Source of the DNA: a virus | Reading direction: 5' to 3' (one strand) | Virus record (IMG/VR): IMGVR_UViG_3300009964_000001 | Span: 86,602-150,601 of that record | DNA length: 64,000 nucleotides | Shown: positions 3,076 to 64,000 of the stretch, piece after piece | Position numbering within the stretch: the first letter of the stretch is position 1 | Layout of the letters: every line of letters starts with the position of its first letter | Translations under genes and position numbers: made by a program | The notes under the pieces: model-generated | The model's input: only the letters and a program-made list of their open reading frames with translations | Database searches by the model: none | Told to the model about the DNA's origin: nothing

Positions 3076-3954
3076 ATGATGAAAGTAAAGTTCATAGCAA
3101 GTGTTGATAAGAACTTCGCTGTTGGAAACGACGGCAAACTTCTATTCAGAATCCAAGAAGATATGAAACTGTTCCGTGAGATGACGATGGGGAATATTGT
3201 CATCATGGGCAGAAAGACATACGAAGAGATCGGAAAGCCACTTGAAGGAAGACTGAACATTGTCCTATCCCGAGATGACATTTCTATTGGAGGTGTTCAT
3301 GTGTTCAAGTCAATGGAAATGCTCAAAGCTTTCTGTGAATCTTCCACAAATCGACAAAAGGATGTGTTTGTGATTGGTGGTGCGGAAATGTGGAATCTCT
3401 TCAGAAGATATGTTTCACAAATCCACCTCACGAAAGTTCCAGATGATTGTCCCGAATACGACACCGTCTTCCCTTATGATCTTCTTAATGCTTTCACACT
3501 CGTTCATCGAAATCAGATCGGCTTCTATGAAAAGAACTATCAACCGATTGTTCACGAAGTTTATGATCGTCTGGGAGATGTGGTGGTGATGAATCGCAAG
3601 ACCGAAGAACTCTTGGTGGCCAGATTTGTTGATGTCTTGGAACACGTAGGTGGTAGTGGTGACGATATAAAAACTTATCGAGAAAATGACATGCTACTAA
3701 TGACGAACGACAGAATTGCTGTAAAGACTGATCTTCGTGTTTATGAACTTCCTCTTGGAACTCTTGTTAGTGTGAACGTCGTGCCGTCATTGTTCATGGA
3801 TAATGGACTGATGATTGCGGGGTGGGATATCGTCGACGACGATTTCATCGTCTACTTGACATTGACTGGGAAGAAGCCTATTTCTCTGAAACGTGGTGAT
3901 ATCATAGCAGATGTCAACTTCTATTCTCGTCATCCTCTGATGTACGCCCCTTAG
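3076..3954 (+). CDS. frd: Dihydrofolate reductase with C-terminal dUTPase-like extension (paralog 3 of 3)
   Basis: Canonical DHFR blocks: IASVDKNFAVGNDGKLLF, IVIMGRKTYEEIGKPLEGRLNIVLSR, VFVIGGAEMW, LTKVPDDCPEYDTVFP; then about 125 aa with TDLRVYELPLGTLV...AGWDIVDDDF...ISLKRGDIIADV (dUTPase-like). Confidence 0.85.
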   Translation: MMKVKFIASVDKNFAVGNDGKLLFRIQEDMKLFREMTMGNIVIMGRKTYEEIGKPLEGRLNIVLSRDDISIGGVHVFKSMEMLKAFCESSTNRQKDVFVIGGAEMWNLFRRYVSQIHLTKVPDDCPEYDTVFPYDLLNAFTLVHRNQIGFYEKNYQPIVHEVYDRLGDVVVMNRKTEELLVARFVDVLEHVGGSGDDIKTYRENDMLLMTNDRIAVKTDLRVYELPLGTLVSVNVVPSLFMDNGLMIAGWDIVDDDFIVYLTLTGKKPISLKRGDIIADVNFYSRHPLMYAP

Positions 3955-4183: not shown

Positions 4184-4374
4184 GAGAAATACTCTCCTTG
4201 GCTCTCCTTGGCATTTCCCTTGATTTCTGAACTATTCAAAGATATGAAAGCCTTCGAAAGTGGTTTTGAGATCAAGGGAAATACGTCTCTTGAAATCGTC
4301 TTTGTCTATTGAATCATAATCAATCCTCATATGATAGGAACTGTGGACATTAACAAAAAGCAAGAAGAATAGCA

Positions 4375-7729: not shown

Positions 7730-8802
7730 GTGGGAACGATCCTTCCTACGTCCTTAATCCAAAGATAAGAACAAGAGAGCGGTCTATCGTTTTCTCGAAT
7801 AACTCTTTCATGGACAGTTTCGGGAGAACTTTCCTTGACATGACCAAGTTCTCTGTAAAATGTGAAAGATCGTCATCGACAATAATCACGATTGATCCAT
7901 ATGAAGAGGTGACAATCCCTGCGTTCAAGAACGTGATTTTCACGTGTTTCGATGGATCTGTTGCACATATGAACGATGCACAGATTCGAAGCAAGCAGAC
8001 TTTACATTTCAATGTGAATGTGGAAGTTGAAAATCCCAAAGATGCACTGTCGTGGAATTCCAAAACTACTCATCTGAACATAAGTTTTGTGTTCCCACCT
8101 TTAATGAGTGAAGGTATCGACGGAATAGCTAACCTCCAAACACAGCATATAAGCATTCAAAGATACCTCTCGAAATCTGGGAAATATGTCGGATATGTTG
8201 AAGATATCACTTTCGAGCATCTTCATACGCAGGTAAAGTTCAACATCCACTACGAATATGACGAGATTTTGAATGAACACGATCTGAAGATAAGCGACTT
8301 CAAAGTTGCTGGTAAGTTCAGTGGAGGTGGAGAAATCGACACCGAGTACAACGTCACGAAAAAGTCACGAGTTTTCATGCTCTCACCGAACATGGACTAT
8401 CAGTTAGATGGTGTGGAATCCGTTAGATTCCTTTACAACAGGGAAACATGGGAGAAGCTATGTGACAATGGAGCTATTCTGAGAAAGTACACCGCCCTTG
8501 GAAGTGAAGAAGACGTTCGATTAGATCACGACATGTTCCAATCGAAGTTCGATGTCGCTGGATTCCGTGGGATTTCTATCGTTGTCGAAAACAACGAGGA
8601 AATCGGAGAAATCCAAGAGGTTTCTGTGGAAAAGATCTACAAGAAGTATGATGAATCGTTTGATTGTTCAATCACGTGTGGTGCTCTCCGAGAACATGAC
8701 GTTTATCACAGCTTCGGTTTTGTAAGACCTCAAGGAAACAGCGTGTCTTTCAGAAATATAACAAGAAAAAATATCGATTTACAAGTTTTATCTTATGAAT
8801 AA
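7714..8802 (+). CDS. Hypothetical protein
   Basis: 362-aa ORF, no recognised motif. Confidence 0.5.
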   Translation: MANVLSGNDPSYVLNPKIRTRERSIVFSNNSFMDSFGRTFLDMTKFSVKCERSSSTIITIDPYEEVTIPAFKNVIFTCFDGSVAHMNDAQIRSKQTLHFNVNVEVENPKDALSWNSKTTHLNISFVFPPLMSEGIDGIANLQTQHISIQRYLSKSGKYVGYVEDITFEHLHTQVKFNIHYEYDEILNEHDLKISDFKVAGKFSGGGEIDTEYNVTKKSRVFMLSPNMDYQLDGVESVRFLYNRETWEKLCDNGAILRKYTALGSEEDVRLDHDMFQSKFDVAGFRGISIVVENNEEIGEIQEVSVEKIYKKYDESFDCSITCGALREHDVYHSFGFVRPQGNSVSFRNITRKNIDLQVLSYE

Positions 8803-9082
8803 ACTCAACCTTTTATCAATCCTTAAGGTGTTGGTAAAGCAGGAACTGGGAAATGTCACAGTCAATGGCAATCTCCTCAGTTATAACAGTGGCGTGGTGT
8901 CCAATAATGTCACAGGTCGTACATACAACGTCGTGGCAAACTACAATTCACTGAATCCAAATGTCGTATCTTGTATGTTCTCCACTTCACAGGGTACGAG
9001 CCATATGGTCTTCGTAAGAGGTCAAGAACGATTTGATCTTCTTCTGAAGCTCATGGAAGTATGTCAAGACAAGCAAATGTAA
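8795..9082 (+). CDS. Hypothetical protein
   Basis: ORF only. Confidence 0.3.
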   Translation: MNKLNLLSILKVLVKQELGNVTVNGNLLSYNSGVVSNNVTGRTYNVVANYNSLNPNVVSCMFSTSQGTSHMVFVRGQERFDLLLKLMEVCQDKQM

Positions 9083-9103
9083 CTTTTTAATTTCAATCCA
9101 AAT

Positions 9104-9367
9104 ATGACTAAGAAAGAATTCATCACAGCTCTCGCAGAGCAGACTGGTGCAACTAAGACGCAGGTAGAAGCCATCATCGGTGCTTATCACAAGACTATCA
9201 TCGAAAGTCTTAAGAAGGATGAGCCAGTGACCTTCGTTGGCTTCGGTACGTACTCATCCAGAGTTCGCCCAGAGCGTGAAGCCTTCAAGCCTGGTACTAA
9301 GGAAAAGATGACAGTACCTGCAAAGAAGGTCGGTAAGTTCAAGATGTCAAAGTCTGTAGAACTTTAG
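9104..9367 (+). CDS. hup: HU/IHF-family histone-like DNA-binding protein
   Basis: MTKKEFITALAEQTGATKTQVEAIIGAY...FGTYSSRVRPEREAFKPGT matches HU fold signature; 87 aa. Confidence 0.85.
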   Translation: MTKKEFITALAEQTGATKTQVEAIIGAYHKTIIESLKKDEPVTFVGFGTYSSRVRPEREAFKPGTKEKMTVPAKKVGKFKMSKSVEL

Positions 9368-9568: not shown

Positions 9569-10990
9569 ATGAAAGCCAAGAAGCATCAAGTAGGCATGTT
9601 CGATCACATGTTCGAAAAGGGAAAGATCACGTTCTTGTTGGATGGTTATTCCGCAGGTTCATCTGGCAAAGGCAAGTGTGAATCTCTCATCGTAAAGAAC
9701 ACATCGTTCGGCACTGGGGATAAGCGTCTTGCAGTCTGTACCACGAACTCTGCAAATGCATCGCATTGGGTTTATGATGACGGCAAGAAGATGATGTTCG
9801 AAGTACTGCCTTCATCGGCTTATCTTCACGAAAAGCTCGAGTTCGTCGCTATCGGTCATGGTGCATCATTCTCCGTAGAAAGACTCTTCGAGGAAATCAA
9901 GATGAGTGGTCTTCCTCTCGATAAGCTCTTCATCCATCCCAAGGCAGGGATCATCACCAAGATCGATGAAGACTACGAAAAGGGTCTTTGTGATATCGAC
10001 GGCAACTATGGTTCATCCGATCACGATGGTACAATCGCAGGCGGATCTACTTGCTCTGGATCTGGTGCAGTTCGAGCAAAGAAGGTCGTAAGAAACAAGA
10101 CAGTGACTTATGCTTATCAAGTCCCAGAACTCAAGCAGTTCATCTGTGATGTCGAGAAGCGTCTTATGACGTTTATGCTTAACGGAGGATCAGTTCTTCT
10201 ACAGATTGGTCAAGGTTTCCCACTTTCGTATGGTCTCGGCTATAACAAGCAGAACTCAACAAGTCGAAACGTGACGATCAGTGCAGCTTTGGATGACATG
10301 AATCTTCCTCCATTTTTCGCAGGTGATGTTATCTTGAATGGTAGAACTTATCCGATCAAGATCAACAACAAGAAGTATCGTCTTCTCGGTGGGAAGCCAG
10401 TTGTCCGTCTTCACAAGAACTCGGAATCGACACTGAAGTATTATGCTCATAAGCATCTGTTCGACTTCATCGAAGGAGATGATCACGTTTCTATCGTCAC
10501 ACGTAAGGAATTCATTAACTTCTACGAAATGCGTGAGTTCCCCTACCTTGAATACGAGGTTATCGAATCGTTCAGTGGTACTGGCTATTCTCCAATCTGG
10601 AACGAAGAAAGTCACCAGCGAGAAATCACGTGGGAAGATGTCGAAAAGAACTATGGGAAGACGATTCCAGATGATGTAAAGTGCACGTCACTTACCAAGC
10701 TCCCTCGAAGAGTCTTTGAGTTTGATAAGAGCCTTCTGCACGACGGCATTCTCTACAATCTTTCTCCAAATGGCAAAACTCACATTGTCATCAACTTCGT
10801 CAACTGGGTAGATGGTGAAATGGACGGAGAACGTGAGAAGATCACGGAGAAGATAGAAGATTGGCTCTCCAAGAACATGTTCGCAGAAATCGACACTATC
10901 AACAAGCTGGTGGGTGATGAGAAGAAGGTAATACTTTCTGTACTCGGGACTGGTCGTGAATCCGACGACTTTGTCGCTGTAGAAGAGTAA
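9569..10990 (+). CDS. Adenylosuccinate synthetase (PurA)-family enzyme with variant P-loop; PurZ-like candidate
   Basis: Blocks align to PurA: LLDGYSAGSSGKGK (PurA GDEGKGK), NSANASHW (GGHNAGHT), GGSTCSGSGAVRAKKV (GTTGRGIGPAYEDKVAR), QIGQG (EGAQG); 473 aa. Confidence 0.8.
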   Translation: MKAKKHQVGMFDHMFEKGKITFLLDGYSAGSSGKGKCESLIVKNTSFGTGDKRLAVCTTNSANASHWVYDDGKKMMFEVLPSSAYLHEKLEFVAIGHGASFSVERLFEEIKMSGLPLDKLFIHPKAGIITKIDEDYEKGLCDIDGNYGSSDHDGTIAGGSTCSGSGAVRAKKVVRNKTVTYAYQVPELKQFICDVEKRLMTFMLNGGSVLLQIGQGFPLSYGLGYNKQNSTSRNVTISAALDDMNLPPFFAGDVILNGRTYPIKINNKKYRLLGGKPVVRLHKNSESTLKYYAHKHLFDFIEGDDHVSIVTRKEFINFYEMREFPYLEYEVIESFSGTGYSPIWNEESHQREITWEDVEKNYGKTIPDDVKCTSLTKLPRRVFEFDKSLLHDGILYNLSPNGKTHIVINFVNWVDGEMDGEREKITEKIEDWLSKNMFAEIDTINKLVGDEKKVILSVLGTGRESDDFVAVEE

Positions 10991-11017
10991 CTTCTTCTCC
11001 TTCAAGAACAATTAGAA

Positions 11018-11059
11018 AAATGAGGGTCATTGTGACAATAAGCACACAATGACCCTCAT
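11018..11059 (+). terminator. Stem-loop after PurA-like gene
   Basis: aatgagggtcattgtg...cacaatgaccctcatt. Confidence 0.55.
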
Positions 11060-11115
11060 TCTTGTTATAAGATTAATAAAAAACACAAGCCCACACCATT
11101 TCGAAAATCTTCATT

Positions 11116-11517
11116 ATGACAAAAGACGACTGCACAAGCATTAAGAAGATACTACGGATTTCTACGATAGTTTTCTTCGTTATCACAACGATCTACTTCA
11201 TTGTCGCAATTATGCGTATTGCGAACATAGGTGAAGAAAGCAAACCACACGAAATAATCGATTCGTTGAAATACACGAACTCTGTCTATGAACACGATGT
11301 TCGAAAGTTGAAAGCACAGATCGATTCACTTTCCATGCAAAACGAGATCTCTTCAAGAAAGATTGATTCACTTGAAAATGTCGTCGATGTGAAAACGTCT
11401 TCATTACGTAAAGCAGAGAGTGCAATGCGAGCAAAGAAGCTGAATTTCTCCAAAGACGTATTCGAAGTTGAACAAGAACTAAGACAAAACATAGCAGAAT
11501 ATGAAAAGAACAATTAG
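11116..11517 (+). CDS. Membrane-anchored coiled-coil protein (N-terminal TM helix)
   Basis: TM segment ISTIVFFVITTIYFIVAIM then heptad-rich region. Confidence 0.4.
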   Translation: MTKDDCTSIKKILRISTIVFFVITTIYFIVAIMRIANIGEESKPHEIIDSLKYTNSVYEHDVRKLKAQIDSLSMQNEISSRKIDSLENVVDVKTSSLRKAESAMRAKKLNFSKDVFEVEQELRQNIAEYEKNN

Positions 11518-11899: not shown

Positions 11900-11938
11900 C
11901 CTCTCCAGAGTGCAGGAAGGTATCTCCCTTGCACTCTG

Positions 11939-13276
11939 ATGTATACGAGAATATTTTCACCCCAATCAAATCAAGAAATGTCAAGGAACGTATCTCCTCT
12001 CGATCACAGGTATGCTGATGTCATACAGAACATGTCGAAAGTCTTTAATTCCGAAAGGTACTACAAGACGATGTGGAATGTAGAAGTCGAATACTTTCTT
12101 TACTTCTTAGAAAAGTTTGTACACCGAGAAGTGGACGGAGACCTCATAAGAAACAGTTGTAAGTTCGACAGTCTTGTCTACAACGAGATAATCTCCGAGG
12201 AAAGTGTAACACGGCACGATGTCAAGGCAGTTATCAATGTCTTACAGAACAAACTGGTCTTCCTTGAGAAATCTCAGAAAATCGAGAAAGTGTCGGTTTA
12301 TGTCCATTTCGGACTGACTTCCCAAGACATTGTTTCGTTATCGATGTCTATTCTCATGTCGGAAGCCATTGAAGTCATTGATCATGTCGTCAACTACACG
12401 GAAGCCATTCTCACAAATCTTCATCGAGAGACGAAGGATGTTTGGTCTCTATCAAGGACTCATGGACAATCTGCAGTTCCCCATCTTTTGAAAGACGACG
12501 TTTATAAGTGGAGGTACGATGTCTTGAAGTTTAGACGGCATATTGTCTATGATGTAGTCAAGTTCTCTGGGGCAGTTGGTAACAACTTCGCAATTTCGAG
12601 ACTTTTCAACATGGACGCTCGGAGAGTTGCGGAACTCATGGATTCGTTTGTGAAGAAGTTCGGAAGATTCACTGTTAGTGGAGAAGAATCGACACAAACC
12701 GACAGATGGGAATCGTTCTGTCAGAGATTTTCTGATTGGAATCTGGCCATTTCAAGGATCATCAGTGATGTGCAACAGATCTGGCAAATGTGCTCGGATG
12801 GTTATTTCAAACTGAAAGTGGACGATGGCTATTGCGGATCTTCGGCAATGCCACACAAGATCAACCCTATCAAGTTTGAAAACGCAGAAGGATGCTTCTG
12901 TAGATGTCAGAAAGACTTCGAGTTTTATATTAGTAAGTTATCGAAGTCAAGAATGCATCGTGATCTGTCGGATTCAGTGGTTATAAGAATGATCCCCGAG
13001 ACGTTGTCTTATCTTTATCTTGGATTCTCGTCGTTTGTAAGTGGTCTGAAAGCACTTGAGGTGAATACCGAGAAGATAAAAGACGACCTCGAAGAGAACT
13101 ATCAAGTGTTCTCCGAAATCGTACAGCTCTATCTGAAGTTGAAGGGAGATGAAGACGCATACGAAGAATCAAAGCGTGTGTTTAGAGGAAGCTCGATGAC
13201 ACTCTACGACTTCAAGAAAGCTATCAAAACTCTCGGTATTGAGTACGATGAAATCAAGAAGTTTATAGAACTTTAG
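11939..13276 (+). CDS. purB: Adenylosuccinate lyase
   Basis: Fumarate-lyase signature GSSAMPHKINPIKFENAEG (E. coli PurB GSSTMPHKVNPIDFENSEG); 445 aa. Confidence 0.85.
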   Translation: MYTRIFSPQSNQEMSRNVSPLDHRYADVIQNMSKVFNSERYYKTMWNVEVEYFLYFLEKFVHREVDGDLIRNSCKFDSLVYNEIISEESVTRHDVKAVINVLQNKLVFLEKSQKIEKVSVYVHFGLTSQDIVSLSMSILMSEAIEVIDHVVNYTEAILTNLHRETKDVWSLSRTHGQSAVPHLLKDDVYKWRYDVLKFRRHIVYDVVKFSGAVGNNFAISRLFNMDARRVAELMDSFVKKFGRFTVSGEESTQTDRWESFCQRFSDWNLAISRIISDVQQIWQMCSDGYFKLKVDDGYCGSSAMPHKINPIKFENAEGCFCRCQKDFEFYISKLSKSRMHRDLSDSVVIRMIPETLSYLYLGFSSFVSGLKALEVNTEKIKDDLEENYQVFSEIVQLYLKLKGDEDAYEESKRVFRGSSMTLYDFKKAIKTLGIEYDEIKKFIEL

Positions 13277-15186: not shown

Positions 15187-15645
15187 ATGGATGAAAAAGT
15201 AAAAGAATACGAGCAATTTGTCGTTTCTTGCTTCAACGAGAATCCTACAAATAACAAGGTTCTCGACTTCATTCACATGACAATGGCACTTATGTCAGAA
15301 TCTGGTGAATTTGCTGATATAGTCAAGAAGGCGGTGTTCCATTCTAAGGAGATCTCGAAGGTTGATCTTGTAGACGAACTCGGTGATGTTCTGTTCTATT
15401 TCATGAACATTTGTCATTTCCTTGGTGTCACGATTGATGATGTCATGGAAGCAAACCTCATCAAGATCCGTGAAAGATATCCCGAAGGTCGTGGTAAGAA
15501 CTATAACTTCGGTACACGTAATAAGGCAGAAGAAAAGAAGAGAATAGAACAATTCTTGATGAAGATAAAGCAAGACGTGTCAATCGATATCAATATCAGC
15601 CAAATCAGCGGACATCAACATCAGTCTCAACACATAGGAAAGTAG
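15187..15645 (+). CDS. mazG: MazG-like nucleoside triphosphate pyrophosphohydrolase
   Basis: ESGEFADIVKK...ELGDVLFYFMNICHFLGVTIDDVMEANLIKIRERY matches MazG/NTP-PPase helix motifs (E..E...E..D). Confidence 0.8.
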   Translation: MDEKVKEYEQFVVSCFNENPTNNKVLDFIHMTMALMSESGEFADIVKKAVFHSKEISKVDLVDELGDVLFYFMNICHFLGVTIDDVMEANLIKIRERYPEGRGKNYNFGTRNKAEEKKRIEQFLMKIKQDVSIDINISQISGHQHQSQHIGK

Positions 15646-16495: not shown

Positions 16496-17638
16496 ATGAA
16501 TGAGGGTGTGCAAACTTTTGTGCATCCTCATTCATCTGTATTTTTCAAAGACTTCATGCGATACATTCTCGACAAACTGATAATAATCTTGACGATAATA
16601 CGATACAAACTTTGGAGATTTCCAATAAACGATGACGGAATAATTGATTCAGTCGTGCTTGATAACCACGAAACACTCACTATAAACGGTTGGAAGCCAC
16701 TTTCTTCAGTACACCTAAAAGCTGTTCATGACATTGTGGAAGTTGGTGCAGGTGAGTACAAGGTAAGTGGTTCTGTCAATCACCTCGTCTATTCTTCCAA
16801 GAACACGCTTGAAAGCTATCAGCCCACGAAAGTGAAGGATCTCTCTTTAGGTGATATCTTGATGACGATGGATGGTGCTCGCAAAGTCTCTTCACTCAAG
16901 AAGTCTCATCAGCAGATCGTGTTTGATTTATCTGTCGTGGATGAGACTTTGTCATATTTCTCGGACGGAATACTTTCCCACAACTCTGTAATGAGTGGTA
17001 TTTTTATTGCGTGGTACATCTTGACTAACTACGACAAGACCGTTCTTTGTACTAGTGCTAATGCAGACAAGGTCGATGAGCTTGTTGACAAGATTAACTC
17101 GATCTTCATGCATCTTCCGTTCTATATGAAGCTCGGGATTGAAGTTGATAATGTATCCAAGAAGAAATGGGACAACGGTTGCAAACTGATAGGTGAAACA
17201 GCGACTGAGAACTCTGGTGCAGGTGAAACCGCAGACCTCCTTTATGCTGACGAGTTTGCACTTATCGAACCTAACATAATCAACGAGTTCTTCCGTGTAG
17301 TTTATCCTACACTTTCGGCAAGTAAGAAATCGAAGATGATAATTACCAGCACGGCAAGAGGTATGAACAAGTTCTATCAGCTTTATCAAGATGCGCTTGA
17401 TGGTAAGAACAATTTCAACCCAATAAGAATCGACTGGTGGGAAGTAGAAGGCAGAGATGAACAATGGAGACTTGATCAGATAGCAGACCTCGGTTCTGAA
17501 GCAGACTTTAACCAAGAATACGGTAACTCGTTCATGAGCGGATCAACACTTCTTCTCTCCACTGCTGTCCTCAAGAAACTCGGGAAGTATCAGAAGAAGT
17601 TCGTAAATGGTGTGTTCTCGAATGACGGTTCTTTGTGA
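16496..17638 (+). CDS. Terminase large subunit, ATPase-domain fragment (gp17-like) preceded by intein-like Hint module
   Basis: After ...GILSHN|S the sequence aligns to T4 gp17 from residue 168 (SVMSGIFIAWYILTNYDK ~ TVVAIFLAHFVCFNKDK), Walker B LLYADEFA, C-motif IITSTARG; segment upstream of the P-loop is absent. Confidence 0.75.
   Translation: MNEGVQTFVHPHSSVFFKDFMRYILDKLIIILTIIRYKLWRFPINDDGIIDSVVLDNHETLTINGWKPLSSVHLKAVHDIVEVGAGEYKVSGSVNHLVYSSKNTLESYQPTKVKDLSLGDILMTMDGARKVSSLKKSHQQIVFDLSVVDETLSYFSDGILSHNSVMSGIFIAWYILTNYDKTVLCTSANADKVDELVDKINSIFMHLPFYMKLGIEVDNVSKKKWDNGCKLIGETATENSGAGETADLLYADEFALIEPNIINEFFRVVYPTLSASKKSKMIITSTARGMNKFYQLYQDALDGKNNFNPIRIDWWEVEGRDEQWRLDQIADLGSEADFNQEYGNSFMSGSTLLLSTAVLKKLGKYQKKFVNGVFSNDGSL
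16634..16984 (+). mobile_element. Mini-intein (Hint domain, about 117 aa) at terminase P-loop site
   Basis: Block A-like IIDSVVL, block B SGSVNHLVYS, block F VFDLSVVDETLSYF, block G GILSHN followed by Ser; no canonical Cys/Ser at position 1. Confidence 0.55.
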
Positions 17639-17679
17639 TGAAAATTGCACAGGTTTTTAATTTATAAAAATTAAAAGAT

Positions 17680-18507
17680 TTGCGGAAAATGGTAGAAGAT
17701 GTTCTCCTTGAATACGACCAGTACTTTTTCATACACCCCAACTTTGAACTTCAGTGGTTTAAAGATGAGCGCAATGCGTTCGTTCTATCAATAGACATTG
17801 CAGAAGGTAAAGGAGGTGACTACACGATCATCAACTTCTTCCAAGTCCTCCCAATGACACCTTCGGAAATTGAAGGTGTGAAAATCTTCAACGACGAAGA
17901 ATCATTCTTCAAGCTGGTGCAGGTTGCCATGTTTAGATCGAACATGGTAGAAACACCAGAATGTGCAAATTGGCTGTATCATTTCATAAACGGTTACATG
18001 ATACAGGACAACTTGAAGATCGTTATCGAGAACAACTTTGAAGGGAACTACTTCCGAAACACACTAATGAACATTTATGGAGAGCAGAATGAACTCGATG
18101 AAGATGTCATATTCTGCAAGTTTCTCTATAATGCTCGAGATGATAATGCTCGAACTTTCAGAGTCGGGATTTATCAAACAGAACCCCGAAAGCAACATTC
18201 TTGTAAGATATTCTCCGATCAACTGAAGAATAACCAGCTTGTTCTTACTGAGTTTATGACAATCCAAGAAGCTATGACCTTTGCACGATCAGAAAAATCA
18301 TCTTCATATCGTGCAAGCTCTGGCCATGACGACTGTGTTATGACGTGTGTCAACGTTGTAAACATTCGAGATATTGAAGAATGGTCAGAACTCGTGGAAA
18401 TTGTCAGTGAAAATTGCACAAACGAGTTTTGGAAACTGGTCGACAAGAAGCTCGGGAAACAAGCCGAAAGAAATGACGAACTCGACATATCAGACTATTA
18501 CGATTAA
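17680..18507 (+). CDS. Terminase large subunit nuclease domain (separate ORF)
   Basis: FVLSIDIAEGKGGDYTIINFF (gp17 [21 protein letters not shown]) and SSGHDDCVMTCV (gp17 GYHDDLVMSLV) RNaseH-like nuclease motifs. Confidence 0.75.
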   Translation: MRKMVEDVLLEYDQYFFIHPNFELQWFKDERNAFVLSIDIAEGKGGDYTIINFFQVLPMTPSEIEGVKIFNDEESFFKLVQVAMFRSNMVETPECANWLYHFINGYMIQDNLKIVIENNFEGNYFRNTLMNIYGEQNELDEDVIFCKFLYNARDDNARTFRVGIYQTEPRKQHSCKIFSDQLKNNQLVLTEFMTIQEAMTFARSEKSSSYRASSGHDDCVMTCVNVVNIRDIEEWSELVEIVSENCTNEFWKLVDKKLGKQAERNDELDISDYYD

Positions 18508-18511
18508 ACAT

Positions 18512-19162
18512 ATGGACAAAACAACTACTAACAATGTCTCATCGAAGGCGAAGATAGAAGATGAACAGCAGGAGGAGGACATGCTCTTCATACCACAGTC
18601 CAAGACTGGAGGTAACATGTATAAAGAGAACTCTTGTGGTACTTCTTTCTCTGCTGATCAAGATTATCAAGATCAATTCCTTGATGACATTTATAACCCA
18701 GATGAATACAGAACAAGACAGAACTTCTGTGAAAAGTTCTATTCATCTTTGCAGTCGATCATCAACAAACATAAGCGATTCTCGTATATACGATCGTTCG
18801 ATATGAATCACGTGAGATGTGGCGACAACGTTTGCCACCTCGATAAAACATCACCATTTATGATAAACTTTGTACTTCATAATGGTGATGTTGTTGTATC
18901 TGACGATTCTTGTACTTTCTCTCGTGAAGATAAGAGTCATCTGAAGCCATACGAAAAACTGATGAACTCGTTCTTCAAGAATGATCGTTCTGATCTTTAT
19001 GATGTCGTCTATCGGAAAATGGTCGATTTCGATTTCGATCATAAGCTCTATTTTTGCATCTATTGCGAATATTTCAAGATAACAGACCATGAAGCGTTTT
19101 TTGATTCTCTTCCAAAGTTCCACCAAGACAACATAGAACGAATGTATAGACGGAGACGATAA
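18512..19162 (+). CDS. Hypothetical Cys-rich protein (track ORF 18374..19162; start moved to first ATG after terminase stop)
   Basis: ORF; several C/H residues. Confidence 0.4.
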   Translation: MDKTTTNNVSSKAKIEDEQQEEDMLFIPQSKTGGNMYKENSCGTSFSADQDYQDQFLDDIYNPDEYRTRQNFCEKFYSSLQSIINKHKRFSYIRSFDMNHVRCGDNVCHLDKTSPFMINFVLHNGDVVVSDDSCTFSREDKSHLKPYEKLMNSFFKNDRSDLYDVVYRKMVDFDFDHKLYFCIYCEYFKITDHEAFFDSLPKFHQDNIERMYRRRR

Positions 19163-19193: not shown

Positions 19194-20690
19194 ATGATCA
19201 ATTGTAAACAGATCAGAGACAAGATGTCGGTGTCTTATTTCGACGAAAACGGAAACATTGCGATATCTGACATAACAATAGACGATCGTGAAAAGTACGT
19301 ATGGACAAAGACAACCGAAGATGACAAGTTTCGAGACAAGACTTACGTATCTCAAGACGGATTCCCTGTGAAAAAAGAACGTAAGTCCTATCTCGACAAA
19401 TATCGCAAGATCGAGTTCTTGCTGTCTCTACCAGAACGTTTACAAGCGAAGATTTTCTCAAACAATCAGCCACGTAAGTTCTTCTGGGATATTGAAACAG
19501 AAGTTTTTGATGACTTCCCCGATGCTGGGAATCCTGTTGGGAGAATCTTCACGCATCAGTATTGTGATGAGTTCGGCAATGGTACTGTCATGGGCATCAA
19601 GCCACTTTCACAGACACAAATCGACTCTATCGAACAGAAGATCAACGACTATCTCTCACAGATCACCGATAAGACGCTTCATCAGAGATATAAGTTCCGT
19701 TACATTTACTACCCCGATGAGTTCACGATGAACAAAGACTTCGTCGAGAATCATGCAACAAAGATGCCGTGTATTTTCGGATGGAACGTGCTGAAGTTCG
19801 ATACAAGATACCTCGTCAACAGGTGTAAAAAGACGAACATTGATCCTACAATTCTCTCACCAAAGAGAATGCTTTACTCGACGATTGCGAAAGATAAGTT
19901 CGACCATTCATCGAAAATTGAAATCGAACTTCCTCTTCATCGACCAATCATCGACTACATGCAAATCTTCGAATTCTTTGATAGATCGATTAAACAGAAG
20001 TCATCAATGTCGCTCGATTTCATCGCATCAGAAATCCTTGGTGTCAAGAAGATCCATCATTCCGAAACTCTGATGGAACTCTATGAGAAGGACTATGAAC
20101 GTTACGTGCTTTATGGTATCATCGATACGTTCCTCGTGGCATTGATCGACAAGAAGTGTAGAACATTTGAATCAATGAGCGTTCTTGCAAATCTCCTACG
20201 TGTCGAAGTTGCACAGTCTATGTTCGTTAGTGTCGGGATCGAAACACTCTTGTGTGACTACTATTACAAGCATTACAACAAGGTGTTTGTAAAGGACTAT
20301 GACAAGCAGATTCCCGAAGGTGAAACTTATAGCGCAGGATTCGTTCTACAACCAGGTATTGGTGTTTATGATGGTATCGTCATCTATGACTACGAATCAT
20401 TGTTCCCTTCAATCATGCAGATGTTGAACGTCGGTGAAGATGTTTACCTCGGTCATACCGATGATCAAGGGAAAACCTACGTGGACAAACTCGGAGAAGA
20501 ACACGAACTTGACGAGACGATGTGCTATTCATCCAGTGGTGCAGTTTACTCGAAAAACAGAGATTCCGCAATTCGAACGATGATTTCGAACATGTTCAAT
20601 AAACGAGTAGAAGCAAAACACAAGGAAGCAGAAATCAAAGCAGATATTAATCACTTAAAGCAGATATTAAAAGATAACTTCGGACATTAA
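19194..20690 (+). CDS. Family-B DNA polymerase, N-terminal part only (3'-5' exonuclease domain + motif A)
   Basis: Exo I FWDIETE, Exo II GWNVLKFDTRYL, Exo III YVLYGIIDT, motif A DYESLFPSIM; ORF stops about 90 aa after motif A, motifs B/C absent. Confidence 0.8.
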   Translation: MINCKQIRDKMSVSYFDENGNIAISDITIDDREKYVWTKTTEDDKFRDKTYVSQDGFPVKKERKSYLDKYRKIEFLLSLPERLQAKIFSNNQPRKFFWDIETEVFDDFPDAGNPVGRIFTHQYCDEFGNGTVMGIKPLSQTQIDSIEQKINDYLSQITDKTLHQRYKFRYIYYPDEFTMNKDFVENHATKMPCIFGWNVLKFDTRYLVNRCKKTNIDPTILSPKRMLYSTIAKDKFDHSSKIEIELPLHRPIIDYMQIFEFFDRSIKQKSSMSLDFIASEILGVKKIHHSETLMELYEKDYERYVLYGIIDTFLVALIDKKCRTFESMSVLANLLRVEVAQSMFVSVGIETLLCDYYYKHYNKVFVKDYDKQIPEGETYSAGFVLQPGIGVYDGIVIYDYESLFPSIMQMLNVGEDVYLGHTDDQGKTYVDKLGEEHELDETMCYSSSGAVYSKNRDSAIRTMISNMFNKRVEAKHKEAEIKADINHLKQILKDNFGH

Positions 20691-27218: not shown

Positions 27219-27620
27219 ATGACTGCAGAACAATACATCAAATCGTTACCTGATTCGGAGCTTATTCTCTCTTATATTGCGTTGGCAGTATCTGAAGACA
27301 TCGAAGGCACGGAAGGTATGGATGCCGACATCAACAACGATGAGTACGAAGATGTTAAAGATCAAGTCGATACACTTATCGAACAAGCTCGTGATCGTGC
27401 GATCACCAATTATCCCATAAGATCTGAAGAAGATACTCTCAAATACTTCGAAGACACCTATGGTGAATTTATTGAGAATAATGAGGATCTCCAAGAATAT
27501 GGGAAGAAATGGAAGGAAAATCCATGGAAGGAATTCCGAGATTCTCTTAATGAAGTGAAAGCTTATTACAAAAACGGTAAGTGGTACGAACATAATGACT
27601 ATTACTTCATAGTCTGGTAA
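27219..27620 (+). CDS. Paralog array member 4
   Basis: MTAEQYIKSLPDSELILSYIALA...EQARDRAITNYPIRSEEDTLKYFED...NPWKEF. Confidence 0.6.
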   Translation: MTAEQYIKSLPDSELILSYIALAVSEDIEGTEGMDADINNDEYEDVKDQVDTLIEQARDRAITNYPIRSEEDTLKYFEDTYGEFIENNEDLQEYGKKWKENPWKEFRDSLNEVKAYYKNGKWYEHNDYYFIVW

Positions 27621-27666
27621 CACAAGTTTGTATATAAAGAAATATTAATAAGAAGAAAGAAGAAAT

Positions 27667-28008
27667 ATGATGCTAATAGAATATATCAGGACGCTACCTA
27701 ATGGTGAACTCATCGAAGCGTATATGGGATCTCTCACAATTGGACAAATGAGAGATGAGGAAATTATTGATATGTACGAACAACATGCTCGTGAACGTCT
27801 AATCTTTGATTATCCAGTGCATAAGGGGGATATTATGAGAGTCTTTGACGAAATGTTTCCTAATTGGGAAAACGATCCAGATCTCGTAGAAGAAAGAAAG
27901 CAATGGGAAGAATATCCATGGTATAAGCTACGACAAGCACTTGATGCAGCGTATGGTAATAATTGGCATGAATACCAAAGTTATTATTTCGTTGATGATG
28001 TTCGATAG
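27667..28008 (+). CDS. Paralog array member 5
   Basis: IEYIRTLPNGELIEAYMGS...YPWYKL...SYYF. Confidence 0.55.
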   Translation: MMLIEYIRTLPNGELIEAYMGSLTIGQMRDEEIIDMYEQHARERLIFDYPVHKGDIMRVFDEMFPNWENDPDLVEERKQWEEYPWYKLRQALDAAYGNNWHEYQSYYFVDDVR

Positions 28009-28051
28009 CACAGTTCACTCACGAAAACACTAATAGAAAATAACAAGTCAA

Positions 28052-28096
28052 ATGTGGCGAAAGATTTGAATCTTTCGCCACATTTGTATATAAAAG
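28052..28096 (+). promoter_or_regulatory. Hairpin (atgtggcgaaagat/tctttcgccacat) fused to TTGTATATAAAAG promoter-like box upstream of array member 6
   Basis: Near-identical module recurs at 28992-29037 with compensatory stem changes. Confidence 0.45.
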
Positions 28097-28125
28097 AAAA
28101 AAACGATCTTAATAGAAAAGATAAA

Positions 28126-28518
28126 ATGACTGTAGAAGAATATATCAAGACGCTACCCGACGCAGAACTCATCTTTGCGTATATTGCATGCGCTGGAACA
28201 GAAGATATCGACGTAGGTGAAGACCTTCGTGAACTCGATATAGAGAACGATGAATATGAAGACTTTAGTTATGAAACCGAAGAACTCGTAGAACAAGCAC
28301 GTGACCGTGCCATAGCTGAATACCCTATCAGTTCTAAGGAAGATGCTCTGAGATACTTCGATGAGTGCTATGGTGAAGACCTCGAGTATGATGAAGATCT
28401 CGTAGAATGGAGAAAGAAATGGGAAGAAGATCCATGGAGTCAGTTCTATCACGTACTTGACGAAATGGGTGATTGGTATGAAGATAACGGTTATCACTTC
28501 AGAGCTGAAGAGTGGTAA
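28126..28518 (+). CDS. Paralog array member 6 (track ORF 28054..28518; probable start at MTVEEYIKTLPD)
   Basis: MTVEEYIKTLPDAELIFAYIACA...EQARDRAIAEYPISSKEDALRYFDE...DPWSQF. Confidence 0.6.
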   Translation: MTVEEYIKTLPDAELIFAYIACAGTEDIDVGEDLRELDIENDEYEDFSYETEELVEQARDRAIAEYPISSKEDALRYFDECYGEDLEYDEDLVEWRKKWEEDPWSQFYHVLDEMGDWYEDNGYHFRAEEW

Positions 28519-30410: not shown

Positions 30411-30482
30411 TTGTATTCGAGCCTATTTCTCCTTGTTTGAATACCTTTGTGAATATCAGAGATCAAGGAAAGTACCTCTCCG

Positions 30483-50368: not shown

Positions 50369-50374
50369 GTCTTC

Positions 50375-50460
50375 CGATTACAGGAAGGTACTTTCCTTTC
50401 GATCTGATGGTCTTGGTGGTACTTATATAACATCGACAGCAAGAAAGCCCAAGGAAAAGG
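50375..50460. repeat. IR-bounded ~105-bp element, copy A (left arm GATTACAGGAAGGTACTTTCCTT; right arm degenerate)
   Basis: Shares arm and internal GGTGGTACTTA(T/C)ATAACATCGA with copy B. Confidence 0.55.
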
Positions 50461-56110: not shown

Positions 56111-56214
56111 TCTTCTGATTAAAGAGAGGTACTTTCCTTGAGCTTGGAGGTATTGAGTGGTACTTACATAACATCGATAATTCTCGAGGACAAGGGAAGT
56201 ACCTTCCTTTAATT
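56111..56214. repeat. IR-bounded ~105-bp element, copy B
   Basis: Arms AAAGAGAGGTACTTTCCTTG / CAAGGGAAGTACCTTCCTTT. Confidence 0.65.
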
Positions 56215-61935: not shown

Positions 61936-61953
61936 CGAGTTTTTTTTCTTTTG

Positions 61954-62026
61954 TGATTCCAGTGGGGATCGAACCCACAACCCCTACATTAAAAGTGTAG
62001 TGCTCTACCTGTTGAGCTATGAAATC
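61954..62026 (-). tRNA. tRNA-Lys (anticodon TTT)
   Basis: Acceptor GATTTCA/TGGAATC (one GU), D GCTC-AACAGGTA-GAGC, anticodon CTACA-CTTTTAA-TGTAG, T-arm GTGGG-TTCGATC-CCCAC. Confidence 0.8.
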
Positions 62027-62203
62027 TGAACCAGTATTAAGCAATCTCTCAATAACCAATGATTGATCAATGATTGATCGTTTCGATGTTCTTATTGTAG
62101 ATGTCAAGATGTTAGTTTCATTGATGATTTTCGAGGATTTTTGGAGGTTGTTGTTTTAGAGATTGAAGAAATGTGTCATGATGTATTATTGAATTGATAT
62201 GCT

Positions 62204-62307
62204 TTAAAGGAAGGTACTTTCCTTGTCCTCGAAGACATTGGGTGGGGTAGAAATAGCGGAAAGTATATCAGAGTGCAAGGAAAGTACCTTCCTGTAATCA
62301 GAAGAGG
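62204..62307. repeat. IR-bounded ~105-bp element, copy C (inverted relative to E)
   Basis: Arms TTAAAGGAAGGTACTTTCCTTG / CAAGGAAAGTACCTTCCTGTAATCAGAAGAGG; core AATAGCGGAAAGTATATCAGAG. Confidence 0.7.
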
Positions 62308-62473
62308 TATTCTGTCCAATGATGGGTTTCTGTCGGAAGACAATGATTATTTCCAAGGACTATTGGAAGACTATGACTAACAATGAAAGACTATGACTAA
62401 CAATGATTGATAATGGAAAGCAATCAAGGATCATCAAAGGGCTATTGGAAGATAATAGTTAGCAATTATCGAA

Positions 62474-62580
62474 TTAAAGGAAGATACTTTCCTTGCACTC
62501 GAAGCTATTCAAGAATATGAAAATAGCGGAGACCATATCAGAGCGCAAGGAAAGTACCAAGGAGAGCCAAGGAGAGGTAT
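62474..62580. repeat. IR-bounded ~105-bp element, copy D (right arm truncated)
   Basis: TTAAAGGAAGATACTTTCCTTG ... AATAGCGGAGACCATATCAGAGCGCAAGGAAAGTACC. Confidence 0.65.
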
Positions 62581-62679
62581 TTGAGAAGGTTATGGTCTCC
62601 TTGCCACATTTATGAATATTGGTTCAGTATTAGTTGGAAGATATTGATTAATCGGTTCGGGGGATTTAGTGAAGGTCTT

Positions 62680-62760
62680 TTTTAAAGTTTTACATGCGTT
62701 TTTTAAAGTTTTACATGCGTGCGCTTTTTTTGGAGTTTTACGTGCGTTTTTTTAGAAGTT
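62680..62760. repeat. Short direct repeats TTTTAAAGTTTTACATGCGT x2 and variants GAGTTTTACGTGCGT, AAGTTTCGTAACACGCAC
   Basis: Seen in sequence; further variant at about 62974. Confidence 0.6.
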
Positions 62761-62840
62761 TCGTAACACGCACCTGGTACTATTGGTTTAAACTGGAAAT
62801 TTAAAAACATGCGCTAAACATGTTCCTGCGCACAATGTAT

Positions 62841-62891
62841 GGTTTGGGGCAGCCTGGCTTGGCACTATCGTGCCAAGGCTGACCCCAAACC
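62841..62891. repeat. GC-rich long imperfect hairpin (GGTTTGGGGCAGCCTGGCTTGGCAC-tatc-GTGCCAAGGCTGACCCCAAACC) in AT-rich non-coding region
   Basis: 9-bp and 8-bp perfect segments flanking imperfect middle. Confidence 0.6.
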
Positions 62892-63379
62892 AGTTGTAAA
62901 TACTTCGTATTTACGATAAAAATTTTAAAAAATAACGCATGCGTATACGGGTATACACGGGAATACACGCGTTTTTTAAAGTTTCGTGTGTGCGCACGGT
63001 GTGTCGACTTTCGAAGATTAATCTGATGAATCCTCCAATTTTCAACTTTCCATTCAAAATCAGTCATAATCTTTGATGATGATCTTTCAATTTCAATCTC
63101 TCTTTGATTAATAGCCATTGTCTTTCCAAAGAATCATAAATATTGTGGAATCAATAGCTTTCTTCTTGGATTTCCAGTATTCTGGGATTCATAAAGAGAC
63201 TGATTTTGATTTGTCAACTTTCCTTTCCACAATAGAACCATTTAATGATTGTCTTTTGTCTTCAAAACGATTATTATTAAATGGGCGGAAATCTATGATT
63301 CAGACGAGAAAGTCATCTTCTATTAATCAATCTTTCAATCTTTGTATAGAAAGTTTCTACTTTGTGGACTGATATCGAT

Positions 63380-63640
63380 TCTTTGTATTTCAATGATCAA
63401 TCATTAATCTTTCAAAGTCTTCAAAGAATCATCAATGATCAGTCATTGTCTTTGATTGTCTTCCACAGTCTTTGATGATCAGTCATTGTCTTCCACAGTC
63501 TTTGATTATCCTTTGTTATCAGTCATTGTCTTTGATAATCCTTCATAATCCTTGGAAATGACCATTGTCCTTCAATAGTCCTTCAAAGTCTTCCCATAAT
63601 CCTTGGGAAATGGTCGATAATGACCCATTGTCTTCCGACA
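63380..63640. repeat. Degenerate short direct repeats (CATTGTCTT, AGTCTTTGAT, TCAGTCATTGTCTTCCACAGTCTTTGAT variants; iteron-like)
   Basis: Seen in sequence. Confidence 0.5.
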
Positions 63641-63663
63641 GAAACCCACCATTTAACAGAATA

Positions 63664-63770
63664 CCTCTTCTGATTACAGGAAGGTACTTTCCTTGAGCTT
63701 GAGTATAGTTTCCGCTATTTTCATATTCTTAAACCACTTCGAGGACAAGGAAAGTACCTTCCTTTAATTC
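63664..63770. repeat. IR-bounded ~105-bp element, copy E
   Basis: CCTCTTCTGATTACAGGAAGGTACTTTCCTTG ... CAAGGAAAGTACCTTCCTTTAATTC; core is reverse complement of C/D core. Confidence 0.7.
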
Positions 63771-63804
63771 AACCATTGTCGATTATTGTCTTTCAATGAT
63801 CCTT

Positions 63805-64000
63805 GATTGTTGTCATAGTCTTTGATTGTTGTCATAGTCTTTGATTGTTGTCATAGTCTTTGATTGTTGTCATAGTCTTCCATTGTTGTCATAGTCTTTG
63901 ATTGTTGTCATAGTCTTTGATTGTTGTCATAGTCTTTGATTGTTGTCATAGTCTTTGATTGTTGTCATAGTCTTTGATTGTTGTCATAGTCTTTGATTGT
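63805..64000. repeat. Perfect 19-bp tandem repeat GATTGTTGTCATAGTCTTT, at least 10 copies (one variant), running to window end
   Basis: Period confirmed at 63805, 63824, 63843, 63862, 63900, 63919, 63938, 63957, 63976. Confidence 0.9.

Follow-up and report, generated by a model that had tools for sequence, protein, structure and literature searches.

What function might be served by two kilobases of gene-free, repeat-crowded DNA in the otherwise coding-dense genome of a large tailed phage? The stretch in question, hereafter r1, occupies positions 62,030–64,000 of a 64,000-nucleotide (nt) segment, the window, of the IMG/VR virus record IMGVR_UViG_3300009964_000001 (positions 86,602–150,601 of that record), and had been flagged in an earlier reading of the DNA letters (the sequence-only reading) as typical of a replication origin, packaging site or genome terminus. 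The comparisons gathered here suggest, with a probability of roughly 40%, that r1 is one of two paralogous replication-origin-type loci, r1 and r2, of an uncultured, T4-like phage of ~150 kb whose host group is probably the Bacteroidota. This reading is preferred because the locus combines direct repeats (T-boxes), hairpins kept as structures and phased repeat arrays polar to a central core, because the two cores appear redundant, and because r2 sits at a transcription-strand switch beside a replication gene.

A constrained core within a noncoding locus

With a tRNA-Lys gene as its left neighbor (61953–62026, minus strand), the locus is by far the largest stretch of the 64 kb free of open reading frames (ORFs). 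The claim that no credible ORF follows the tRNA is borne out: no ORF in the interval is longer than 105 amino acids (aa), none is conserved in relatives, the lone ORF that spans the core is interrupted there by stops or frameshifts, and stop codons occur in every frame of the array of 19-mers at the right end. Coding DNA can thus be ruled out. A homologous locus was found in seven assemblies from IMG/VR or the European Nucleotide Archive, and in all those that reach its flanks it lies between tRNA-Lys and a NADAR gene on one side and a neck-protein gene on the other, a placement kept in six or more relatives. The neck-protein homologue (583–602 aa, on the window's minus strand) turns its stop codon and a terminator hairpin toward the locus. 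The locus measures ~2.5 kb in four ~150-kb genomes, and by analogy with the assembly L031 (assemblies and pieces of them are given L numbers here) it should run at least 0.7 kb beyond the window end. No similarity to the locus was detected among deposited phages, plasmids or one genome per GTDB species.

Comparison of these relatives places the constrained part in a ~350-bp core at ~62,660–63,010, which is under strong purifying selection. Among the seven genomes the arms on either side of the core are 76–90% identical and the flanking genes 82–91%, and across this divergence the inner ~110 nt of the core are identical. Substitutions elsewhere in the core follow the same clades as those of the flanks, which argues for vertical descent under purifying selection and not for recent transfer; the same evidence led to rejection of the idea that the core is a mobile element recently spread by horizontal transfer. 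The 19-mer array, which the sequence-only reading had treated as the centerpiece, is by comparison lineage-specific and was not met elsewhere in IMG/VR or in a metagenome set. From left to right, the core consists of the following:

62678–62775, plus strand: T-box array, four direct copies of T6–7 AAAG TTTTAC RYGCG, starting at 62678, 62699, 62726 and ~62748
62776–62839, plus strand: unpaired blocks TAACACGC, GTTTAAACTGGA and CTGCGCNCAATGTATGG, invariant or nearly so in seven r1 and six r2 copies
62840–62892, no strand assigned: GC-rich bulged hairpin with the loop TATC, its three stems totaling 22 bp and interrupted by a 4-nt internal loop and a 1-nt bulge
62896–62914, no strand assigned: 8-bp hairpin GTAAATAC-TTC-GTATTTAC, with a 3-nt loop
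62915–63010, plus strand: right part of the core, with an AT-rich tract resembling an inverted T-box, CGCATGCGTATACGGGTATACACGGGAAT, and a fifth T-box at 62972–62992

The T-box TTTTTTAAAGTTTTACATGCG is represented by two exact, two degenerate tandem and one distal copy, i.e., by four or five 21-bp boxes, and the tandem copies start 21–27 bp apart, a spacing of roughly two turns that makes them the iteron-like part of the core. T-boxes are kept in r1 of the relatives as well as in r2, with a changed copy number in L006. The GC-rich hairpin, invariant in all r1 copies, has a DNA free energy of −24.5 kcal/mol (z = −8.1), and both strands of the core fold far better than shuffled sequences (z = −5.2 and −7.2). 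All of the motifs that the sequence-only reading had listed—repeated motifs, three copies of the IR element described below, direct repeats, both hairpins and degenerate repeats—were recovered at or near the places it had assigned to them.

A second core and covariation of the hairpins

BLAST comparison of the core with the other pieces of the same genomes revealed a paralogue, r2, which is ~72% identical over ~300 nt. It had escaped the sequence-only reading because it lies outside the window, ~5.3 kb to the left of position 1 in the window's own lineage. A 20-nt probe common to r1 and r2 finds exactly two cores per complete genome, and a covariance model of the hairpin module, run over the 575 kb examined, recovers r1 and r2 copies only, a single one of them in the window. 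The two cores, 66.5–69.0 kb apart, point in opposite directions, and this inverted arrangement holds in all four complete genomes with both. The r2 copies, one per genome, are:

L068, ~10,950–11,238
L053, 12,598–12,803
L035, 3,161–3,453
L065, 3,181–3,473
L055, 12,565–12,854
L069, ~11,900–12,300

The second core is located in a divergent intergenic region at the head of a ~60-kb block of plus-strand genes. On its T-box side it adjoins the gene that encodes the C-terminal half of the DNA polymerase; its hairpin side carries forward clusters of the 10-bp unit described below and two IR elements, beyond which come a 185-aa ORF, guanylate kinase and, farther on, the portal gene.

Comparison between r1 and r2, and among the copies of each, shows that it is the pairing of the hairpins, and not their sequence, that is conserved. 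In the long hairpin double changes replaced G-C by A-U twice and by U-A once; in the 8-bp hairpin two of the eight pairs show compensatory change, A-T to T-A (in r1 of L009 and in three r2 copies) and A-T to G-C (between r1 and r2), so that five pair positions are affected over both hairpins. The middle stem of the long hairpin differs wholly in sequence between r1 and r2 with its complementarity retained, every pair of the inner stem and of the 8-bp hairpin stays intact, G-U pairs are absent, and the folds of the r1 and r2 hairpins reach z-values of about −8.5 to −9.4. These compensatory changes indicate that selection acts on intramolecular pairing—in single-stranded DNA, a cruciform or RNA—together with specific unpaired sequences.

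A natural deletion fits with redundancy of the two cores. The middle 830 nt of r1, corresponding to window positions 62,600–63,430, are cleanly missing from L017 (IMGVR_UViG_3300006251_000001), which has kept r2. What remains of its r1 is as follows:

L017, 7,803–9,298, strand not given: r1 remnant; close to its tRNA-Lys end, at ~9,080–9,150, is an inserted perfect palindrome of ~64 nt

Repeat arms with mirror symmetry

The arms of r1 are mirror-symmetric about the core, in that both their arrays of a 10-bp unit, ATWRTCYTTS (e.g., ATAGTCTTTG), and their IR elements are oppositely oriented on its two sides. From left to right, the order is a forward IR element, reverse units, a forward IR element, the core, and forward units interspersed with reverse IR elements, of which there is one before the window ends and two or three in relatives. 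The arrays are:

62057–62079, plus strand: left-edge tandem repeat, 2.1 copies of CAATGATTGAT, just upstream (in the minus-strand sense) of tRNA-Lys
62318–62470, minus strand: left arm, clustered copies of the 10-bp unit, all reversed, from repeat analysis
63040–63660, plus strand: right arm, ~35 forward copies of ATWRTCYTTS in one 10.0-bp phase, from motif and periodicity analysis
63805–64000, plus strand: 19-mer array (GATTGTTGTC + ATAGTCTTT), eight exact copies, two with one mismatch and a 6-nt partial copy, running off the window

The unit motif has 22 matches in the 2-kb locus against ~1 per 2 kb elsewhere, and on the plus strand it is enriched ~20-fold over the rest of the window. In the interval 63,040–63,660 the power of TT periodicity is 1.14, compared with 0.89 for the best of ~200 background windows. 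The orientation of the unit flips at the core, and in every genome this strict polarity holds for both r1 and r2. At the left edge, CAATGATTGATC has two exact tandem copies (62057–62079) and five with one mismatch, i.e., seven matches against 1.5 expected. Other short arrays hold this position in relatives, such as (GATAAAT)n in L017, and the L009 contig begins in (GATTGAA)x11, a perfect array at the counterpart of window position ~62161.

The 19-mer consists of one perfect unit, ATAGTCTTT, and one degenerate 9-mer. The array is thus present as the sequence-only reading had described, if not in the stated number: in place of at least 10 exact copies to the window end there are the eight exact and two one-mismatch copies, the latter arising from a TT>CC change at one junction, and 6 nt more. 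The count is an unreliable lower bound because the source contig (JGI Ga0248010_1052, 150,577 bp) ends within the array, 24 nt before the window end. The array is thus an assembly break point of uncertain copy number, but the sequence itself is real: a variant copy interrupts it, and relatives have analogous arrays. Searches of IMG/VR and JGI metagenomes with a 19-mer dimer returned no match, and the relatives have at this position a single ~20-nt progenitor copy (one copy in L031) or another expansion. Since the mirror image of the 19-mer unit, AAGACTATGACTAACAATGA, also occurs twice in the left arm (62367–62406) and the progenitor once in L031, the perfect array is a recent, lineage-specific, local expansion of the unit. 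The bare 10-mer was expanded independently at the same position in another lineage:

L018 (IMGVR_UViG_3300006245_000019), 8,090–8,198, strand not given: perfect tandem arrays, (CATAGTCTTT)x8 followed by (GATAGTCCTT)x3

This array lies in the outermost unit cluster beside the neck gene, and the contig ends in it. Perfect expansions thus involve a 19-mer, a 10-mer or a 7-mer, depending on the lineage. A CRISPR array was rejected, the 19-mers being head-to-tail and without spacers.

The second component of the arms, the ~105-nt IR element, is built from the same 10-bp unit: two inverted, unit-like 12-mers, GTACTTTCCTTG and CAAGGAAAGTAC, flank the spacer AGAATATGAAAATAGCGGA. The copies within r1 and those dispersed in the rest of the window are:

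62196–62305, plus strand: IR copy A, ~105 nt, folding at −19.3 kcal/mol (z = −5.4)
62474–62580, plus strand: IR copy B, also delimited as 62474–62558, a variant with the 3' half of the palindrome replaced by two copies of CCAAGGAGAG
63666–63767, minus strand: IR copy C, opposite to A and B, with 31 nt 100% complementary to copy A
56111–56212, strand not given: dispersed copy, at the orthologous position in six relatives, with gene conversion of its spacer
11902–11943, 30453–30477 and 50370–50408, strand not given: intergenic half elements
4184–4374, strand not given: intergenic, diverged relative of the IR/palindrome family

In all, there are seven IR sites in the window (including the intergenic ones at 56111, 50370, 30453 and 11902), and the 18-nt IR core has 15 matches against 0.06 expected. 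Dispersed copies often lie between convergent genes, next to ordinary terminators. Elements with perfect inner halves number at least nine per relative genome and are found at 42 loci in IMG/VR, nearly all of them in this clade. Across 38 aligned elements the inner halves and the spacer AGAATATGAAAATAGCGGA are invariant or nearly so; variation in the outer halves shows no compensating changes, a pattern more in line with protein sites than with a long hairpin under selection. Long RNA hairpins or terminators were rejected as an account of these elements on the same lack of covariation and the ordinary terminators that adjoin them. The spacers have undergone gene conversion between copies; they include AAGAATAT, one mismatch from the phage's ATAAGA-type motif, though not in all copies. 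The repeats of the locus look, by prediction, like protein-binding sites.

A candidate origin of replication

How might these parts work together? In the scheme that we infer, which runs from array coating through hairpin extrusion to helicase or primase entry, one or more phage proteins would coat the phased unit arrays and the T-boxes, and this coating would bend or wrap the DNA and destabilize the AT-rich core. The two hairpins would be extruded from the DNA thus unwound, or else from the strand displaced when a transcript primes an R-loop, and would then offer a structure-specific entry or priming site to the phage helicase-primase. The arrays would be accessory and tolerant of changes in copy number, and slippage would therefore give rise to perfect expansions confined to single lineages, such as the 19-mer. 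A GC-skew check, which the sequence-only reading had proposed, is compatible with forks that leave r2 and r1 and converge: from the r2 side as far as ~56 kb the skew is positive, and between there and r1 it is negative, with sign changes at 56 and 62 kb.

Several observations weigh against an origin. The skew pattern is fully confounded with the direction of transcription, since it tracks gene orientation. An AT-rich tract (62896–62935) ranks about ninth among the least stable 40-nt windows and the arms fourth and eighth among 100-nt windows, but no minimum of duplex stability lies in the core in this window-wide ranking. DnaA boxes are absent from the region (18 in the whole window against 18.5 expected), the phage promoter-like motifs TATAAGA and TAAATAAC are absent from the core, and no promoter for an R-loop was identified. 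Among ~50 ORFs of the window and flanks, no initiator, Rep-like or origin-binding gene was recognized, though many of these ORFs are unannotated and may include one. A more distant clade, with a neck protein 41% identical, has no noncoding region after its neck gene, and the hairpin covariance model has no match in the pieces of that clade that were examined. The r1 core is dispensable in one genome, 3300006251_000001, and covarying stems with conserved loops would fit a structured RNA equally well.

Alternative explanations

The last of these points leads to an alternative that is unlikely though credible, namely that the core is a structured noncoding RNA with two paralogous genes per genome, the T-boxes and units being promoter-proximal or regulatory protein sites. 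Covarying stems with conserved unpaired blocks, more than 100 contiguous invariant nt that include loops and bulges, the existence of two diverged paralogues, the better-than-shuffled folding of both core strands (as given above) and the asymmetric, bulged form of the long hairpin, which is unlike a simple dsDNA palindrome, would all be accommodated. However, every pair is Watson-Crick on both strands, without any G-U, such that strand specificity is unsupported, and no Rfam family matches at E ≤ 1: only tRNAs pass, and the best matches in the region are chance, miRNA-like ones of 26–27 bits against a cutoff of 100, on IR elements. Nor is there a phage or Bacteroidota-type promoter motif upstream: the Bacteroidota sigma-A motif TAnnTTTG is absent from the region (37 in the window against 42 expected), and the relatives L004–L007 read TACTTTTG at the core position, with poor −33 spacing on inspection of the alignment. 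An intrinsic terminator is likewise missing downstream, although the phage elsewhere uses terminators made of a GC hairpin and a T-run; a scan for sigma-70 promoters and terminators gave only periodic artefacts of the arrays and one weak terminator. Should such an RNA be a replication primer, this explanation would merge with that of an origin. A different account, which we regard as improbable, holds that the arms and inverted cores form a module for recombination, homologous or site-specific, that flips the core or the 68-kb segment between the cores to give isomers or a switch of direction. Two junction contigs speak for it. To the left and right of a junction at ~700–715 of its reverse complement, L029 (ERZ772912 NODE-17082, 1,511 bp) matches L005 with 100% identity, yet its core is flipped relative to the neck gene, with the crossover in an inverted segment that is exact over 32 nt and near-exact over ~55 nt. 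In L009 (IMGVR_UViG_3300006245_000049), positions 1–1,780, the left arm and core of r1 are joined to the right flank of r2 (185-aa ORF, guanylate kinase ... portal), and the 8-bp hairpin is a mosaic with one pair in the r2 state and another in the r1 state. The inverted cores of all four complete two-core genomes and the gene conversion among IR spacers point the same way. Yet both junction contigs are short. L029 could be an inversion isomer or an assembly chimera: its coverage is 1.8x, and its shared 32-nt stretch equals k−1 in an assembly graph with k = 33. The L009 junction would likewise fit either inversion of the 68-kb segment or a chimera. Furthermore, the core is oriented alike in seven of eight assemblies, a search near r1 and r2 found neither a recombinase nor an invertase, and inversion alone leaves the conserved hairpins and T-boxes unexplained.

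A pac or cos packaging site, or a terminal-repeat boundary, with the repeats binding the small terminase, had been among the proposals of the sequence-only reading, and is highly improbable. Phased short repeats around a central site are reminiscent of the pac sites of P1 and SPP1, and several contigs do end within the locus. Their ends nonetheless fall in four different repeats and not at one position: the 19-mer array (source contig), (GATTGAA)x11 (L009), (CATAGTCTTT)x8 (L018) and the 8-bp hairpin (L031). As an observation in its own right, position 1 of L031 (IMGVR_UViG_7000000286_000064, presumably a Human Microbiome Project sample, judging from its number) is the first base of the 3' arm of that hairpin. 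Two inverted copies per genome would poorly suit a single unidirectional pac, and the large terminase gene is 45 kb off, at 16.5 kb. Five contigs of 145–152 kb, near-complete and broken at arbitrary points, contain the locus internally, which is not what a fixed genome end would look like, and the inter-core segment of contig 122716 spans the contig ends while contig 3300006251_000001 begins inside r2, from which the maps can be taken as circular or permuted. A genome terminus, too, is not supported, the window end being an assembly break at a repeat; of the architecture proposed by the sequence-only reading, what stands is a noncoding, origin-like arrangement of direct repeats, hairpins and AT-rich tracts. 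In T4, packaging is by headful and is not known to use a defined pac site. The portal and terminase of the present phage are T4-like, and T4 DNA is circularly permuted without defined ends (PMC3016281). Finally, the arms, 19-mer array and IR elements might be selfish or neutral repeats—comparable to repetitive extragenic palindromes (REP), miniature inverted-repeat transposable elements (MITE), promoter-early stem-loops (PeSL) or minisatellites—in a tolerant region whose functional part would be a small core, or just the tRNA promoter and neck-gene terminator. This is rather unlikely. It would account for the dispersal of IR elements (at least nine per genome, 42 IMG/VR loci) and for the lineage-by-lineage differences among arrays (19-, 10- or 7-mers, one to three modules, the 64-nt palindrome inserted in L017), and the PeSL of T4-type phages, dispersed intergenic cassettes that mediate shuffling, provide a precedent (PMC2839356, PMC4122927). 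It would not account for the strict polarity of the units toward the core in r1 and r2 of all genomes, the 10.0-bp phase kept over 620 bp or the reuse of the consensus unit ATAGTCTTT by independent expansions; and dispersed IR copies fixed at orthologous positions in six genomes cannot have been recently mobile.

Parallels with known replication and partition systems

If r1 and r2 are origins, a parallel might be struck with several systems. Iteron-type origins with hairpin initiation signals include the lambda ori, the gamma origin of plasmid R6K, and RSF1010 oriV with its ssiA and ssiB sites. As in these, three to five direct repeats of ~20 bp with two-turn spacing lie beside AT- and GC-rich segments in the company of structure-specific hairpins. 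In iteron plasmids, Rep monomers bind the iterons and dimers the inverted operators; the unit of the present phage is likewise reused as inverted pairs elsewhere. The phage differs in that there is neither an adjacent or recognized gene for a Rep or O-type initiator nor a DnaA box, and in that its accessory arrays, at ~60 units, are far larger. Hairpins kept as structure and flanked by invariant unpaired blocks are also what single-strand initiation (ssi) sites, primosome assembly sites and single-strand origins (sso) have in common with the core.

Among eukaryotic viruses, the origins of herpes simplex virus (HSV), oriS and oriL, are palindromic or hairpin-forming and present in multiple copies, inverted in the case of oriS, and oriL lies between the divergent polymerase and SSB genes, much as r2 abuts the gene for the C-terminal half of the polymerase in a divergent region. 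The hrs of baculoviruses, in which imperfect palindromes are clustered at ~70-bp spacing, are scattered through the genome and act as origins and enhancers; they recall the IR palindromes of the phage, which are 70 bp apart and both dispersed and clustered. These viruses and their proteins are unrelated to the phage, and the likeness would be one of architecture only. Partition centromeres (R1 parC, pSK41 parC, tubC and sopC) resemble the arms in having long tandem direct repeats of 10–20 bp suited to cooperative coating, and R1 parC has two arrays flanking a core. Unlike these centromeres, the arrays here are mirror-oriented and associated with hairpins in a phage that looks lytic and T4-like, and no gene for ParA, ParM, TubZ or an adaptor was found in the flanks of r1 and r2 or among the scanned ORFs of the window.

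A comparison can also be made with T4 itself, as the phage has a T4-type replisome and virion module, with gp32, a split gp43-like polymerase, UvsX, a DnaB-like helicase, and a T4-like portal and large terminase. In T4, a promoter transcript at oriF and oriG forms a persistent R-loop in a downstream unwinding element, oriE contains evenly spaced direct repeats (iterons) of unresolved role, and all three origins lie near transcription-strand switches (PMC3016281). The present phage similarly has several origin candidates per genome with no motif common outside its lineage, evenly spaced direct repeats in the form of the T-boxes, and r2 at a strand switch. On the other hand, no promoter was identified in its core, its repeats measure 21 bp (T-boxes) and 10 bp (units) and not 12 nt, and the review of T4 origins (PMC3016281) mentions neither two covarying hairpins nor ~105-nt IR elements nor mirror symmetry on the scale of kilobases; the locus also has no sequence similarity to any deposited phage. 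Like PeSL (PMC2839356, PMC4122927), the IR elements are short, conserved, intergenic stem-loop cassettes that are dispersed at gene boundaries and apparently serve as sites of recombination and gene conversion. The definition of PeSL includes an early promoter (PMC4122927), whereas none is clearly recognizable in the IR element, whose conserved parts are two inverted 12-mers and a spacer and not a promoter-terminator pair, and which has separate, ordinary terminators beside its copies.

The phage and its other genes

The nearest cultured relative of the major capsid protein is that of Flavobacterium phage MaF61 (39.5% aa identity), and its other matches are mostly to Bacteroidota phages, with the exceptions of Sphingomonas phage PAU and uncultured metagenomic phages. 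MaF61 was considered as a syntenic relative and rejected, as it is not syntenic. Its positions 27,596–28,420 (L032) form an 824-nt divergent intergenic region upstream of a block of helicase, nuclease, chaperonin and polymerase genes, with nested inverted repeats whose arms of 41 and 27 nt share one centre and a 24-nt pair centred ~13 bp away. This region resembles r2 in architecture, by analogy and without similarity of sequence.

Besides thymidylate synthase, dihydrofolate reductase (DHFR), ribonucleotide reductase, a PurA/PurZ-like and PurB pair and MazG for nucleotide metabolism, the window codes for replication proteins (gp32, UvsX, a DnaB-like helicase and the N-terminal half of the DNA polymerase), virion proteins (a baseplate wedge, prohead protease, major capsid protein and a gp4-like head-completion protein), GroEL, an EcoRI-type methylase, a NADAR protein and six tRNAs. 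Two adjacent genes with DHFR domains (2012–3064 and 3076–3954) come after thymidylate synthase. The PurA/PurZ-like synthetase (9569–10990), adenylosuccinate lyase (11939–13276) and MazG-like pyrophosphohydrolase (15187–15645) are grouped as in phages that replace adenine by 2-aminoadenine; the PurZ model reaches just 85 bits, its cutoff being 300, and a Z-genome is therefore unproven. The DNA polymerase is encoded by two genes ~25 kb apart:

Window 19194–20690, plus strand: N-terminal half, phrog_262 positions 12–496
L035 1809–3011, minus strand: C-terminal half, phrog_262 positions 484–841, directly adjoining r2

The T4-type large terminase is represented in the window by its N-terminal part only (16496–17638, a 380-aa ORF) and may be split or interrupted. 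Two overlapping ORFs that come after it (17680–18507 and 18374–19162, in the gene stretch 16496–19162) have no Pfam match.

Two motifs are candidate promoters. TAAATAA[CG], a candidate late-promoter motif, occurs seven times on the plus strand (25664, 29901, 33218, 42347, 43061, 45070 and 52407), and in all the cases inspected it lies just upstream of a plus-strand gene, several of these genes being structural. TATAAGA, which comes after many terminators, is a candidate early or middle promoter.

Implications

For the assemblies of this phage clade, the repeats of the locus explain both contig breaks and mis-joins, and short-read contigs cannot be relied on for the number of 19-mer copies or for the orientation of either the core or the 68-kb segment. 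On the biological side, the locus may represent a new variant of the origin architecture of phages or plasmids, with an unusually large superstructure of phased repeats. A more far-reaching and quite unlikely possibility is that the inverted cores and homologous arms make the 68-kb block invertible and that this is used in replication, or else that the core belongs to a new class of structured RNA or DNA that nucleates a kilobase-scale filament on the 10-bp units. Flip-flop inversion has precedents in herpesviruses and the 2-micron plasmid, and inversion of the 68-kb block during replication could convert theta forks into double-rolling-circle amplification. Were either true, the invertible block or filament-nucleating core would be an architecture of replication control undescribed for tailed phages. 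Next to nothing is known of replication origins in large uncultured phages, among them the T4-like Bacteroidota phages of human-associated samples; against this background, the locus offers a delimited pair of candidate origins, a two-hairpin module supported by covariation and a defined 10-bp unit as the putative binding site of a protein.

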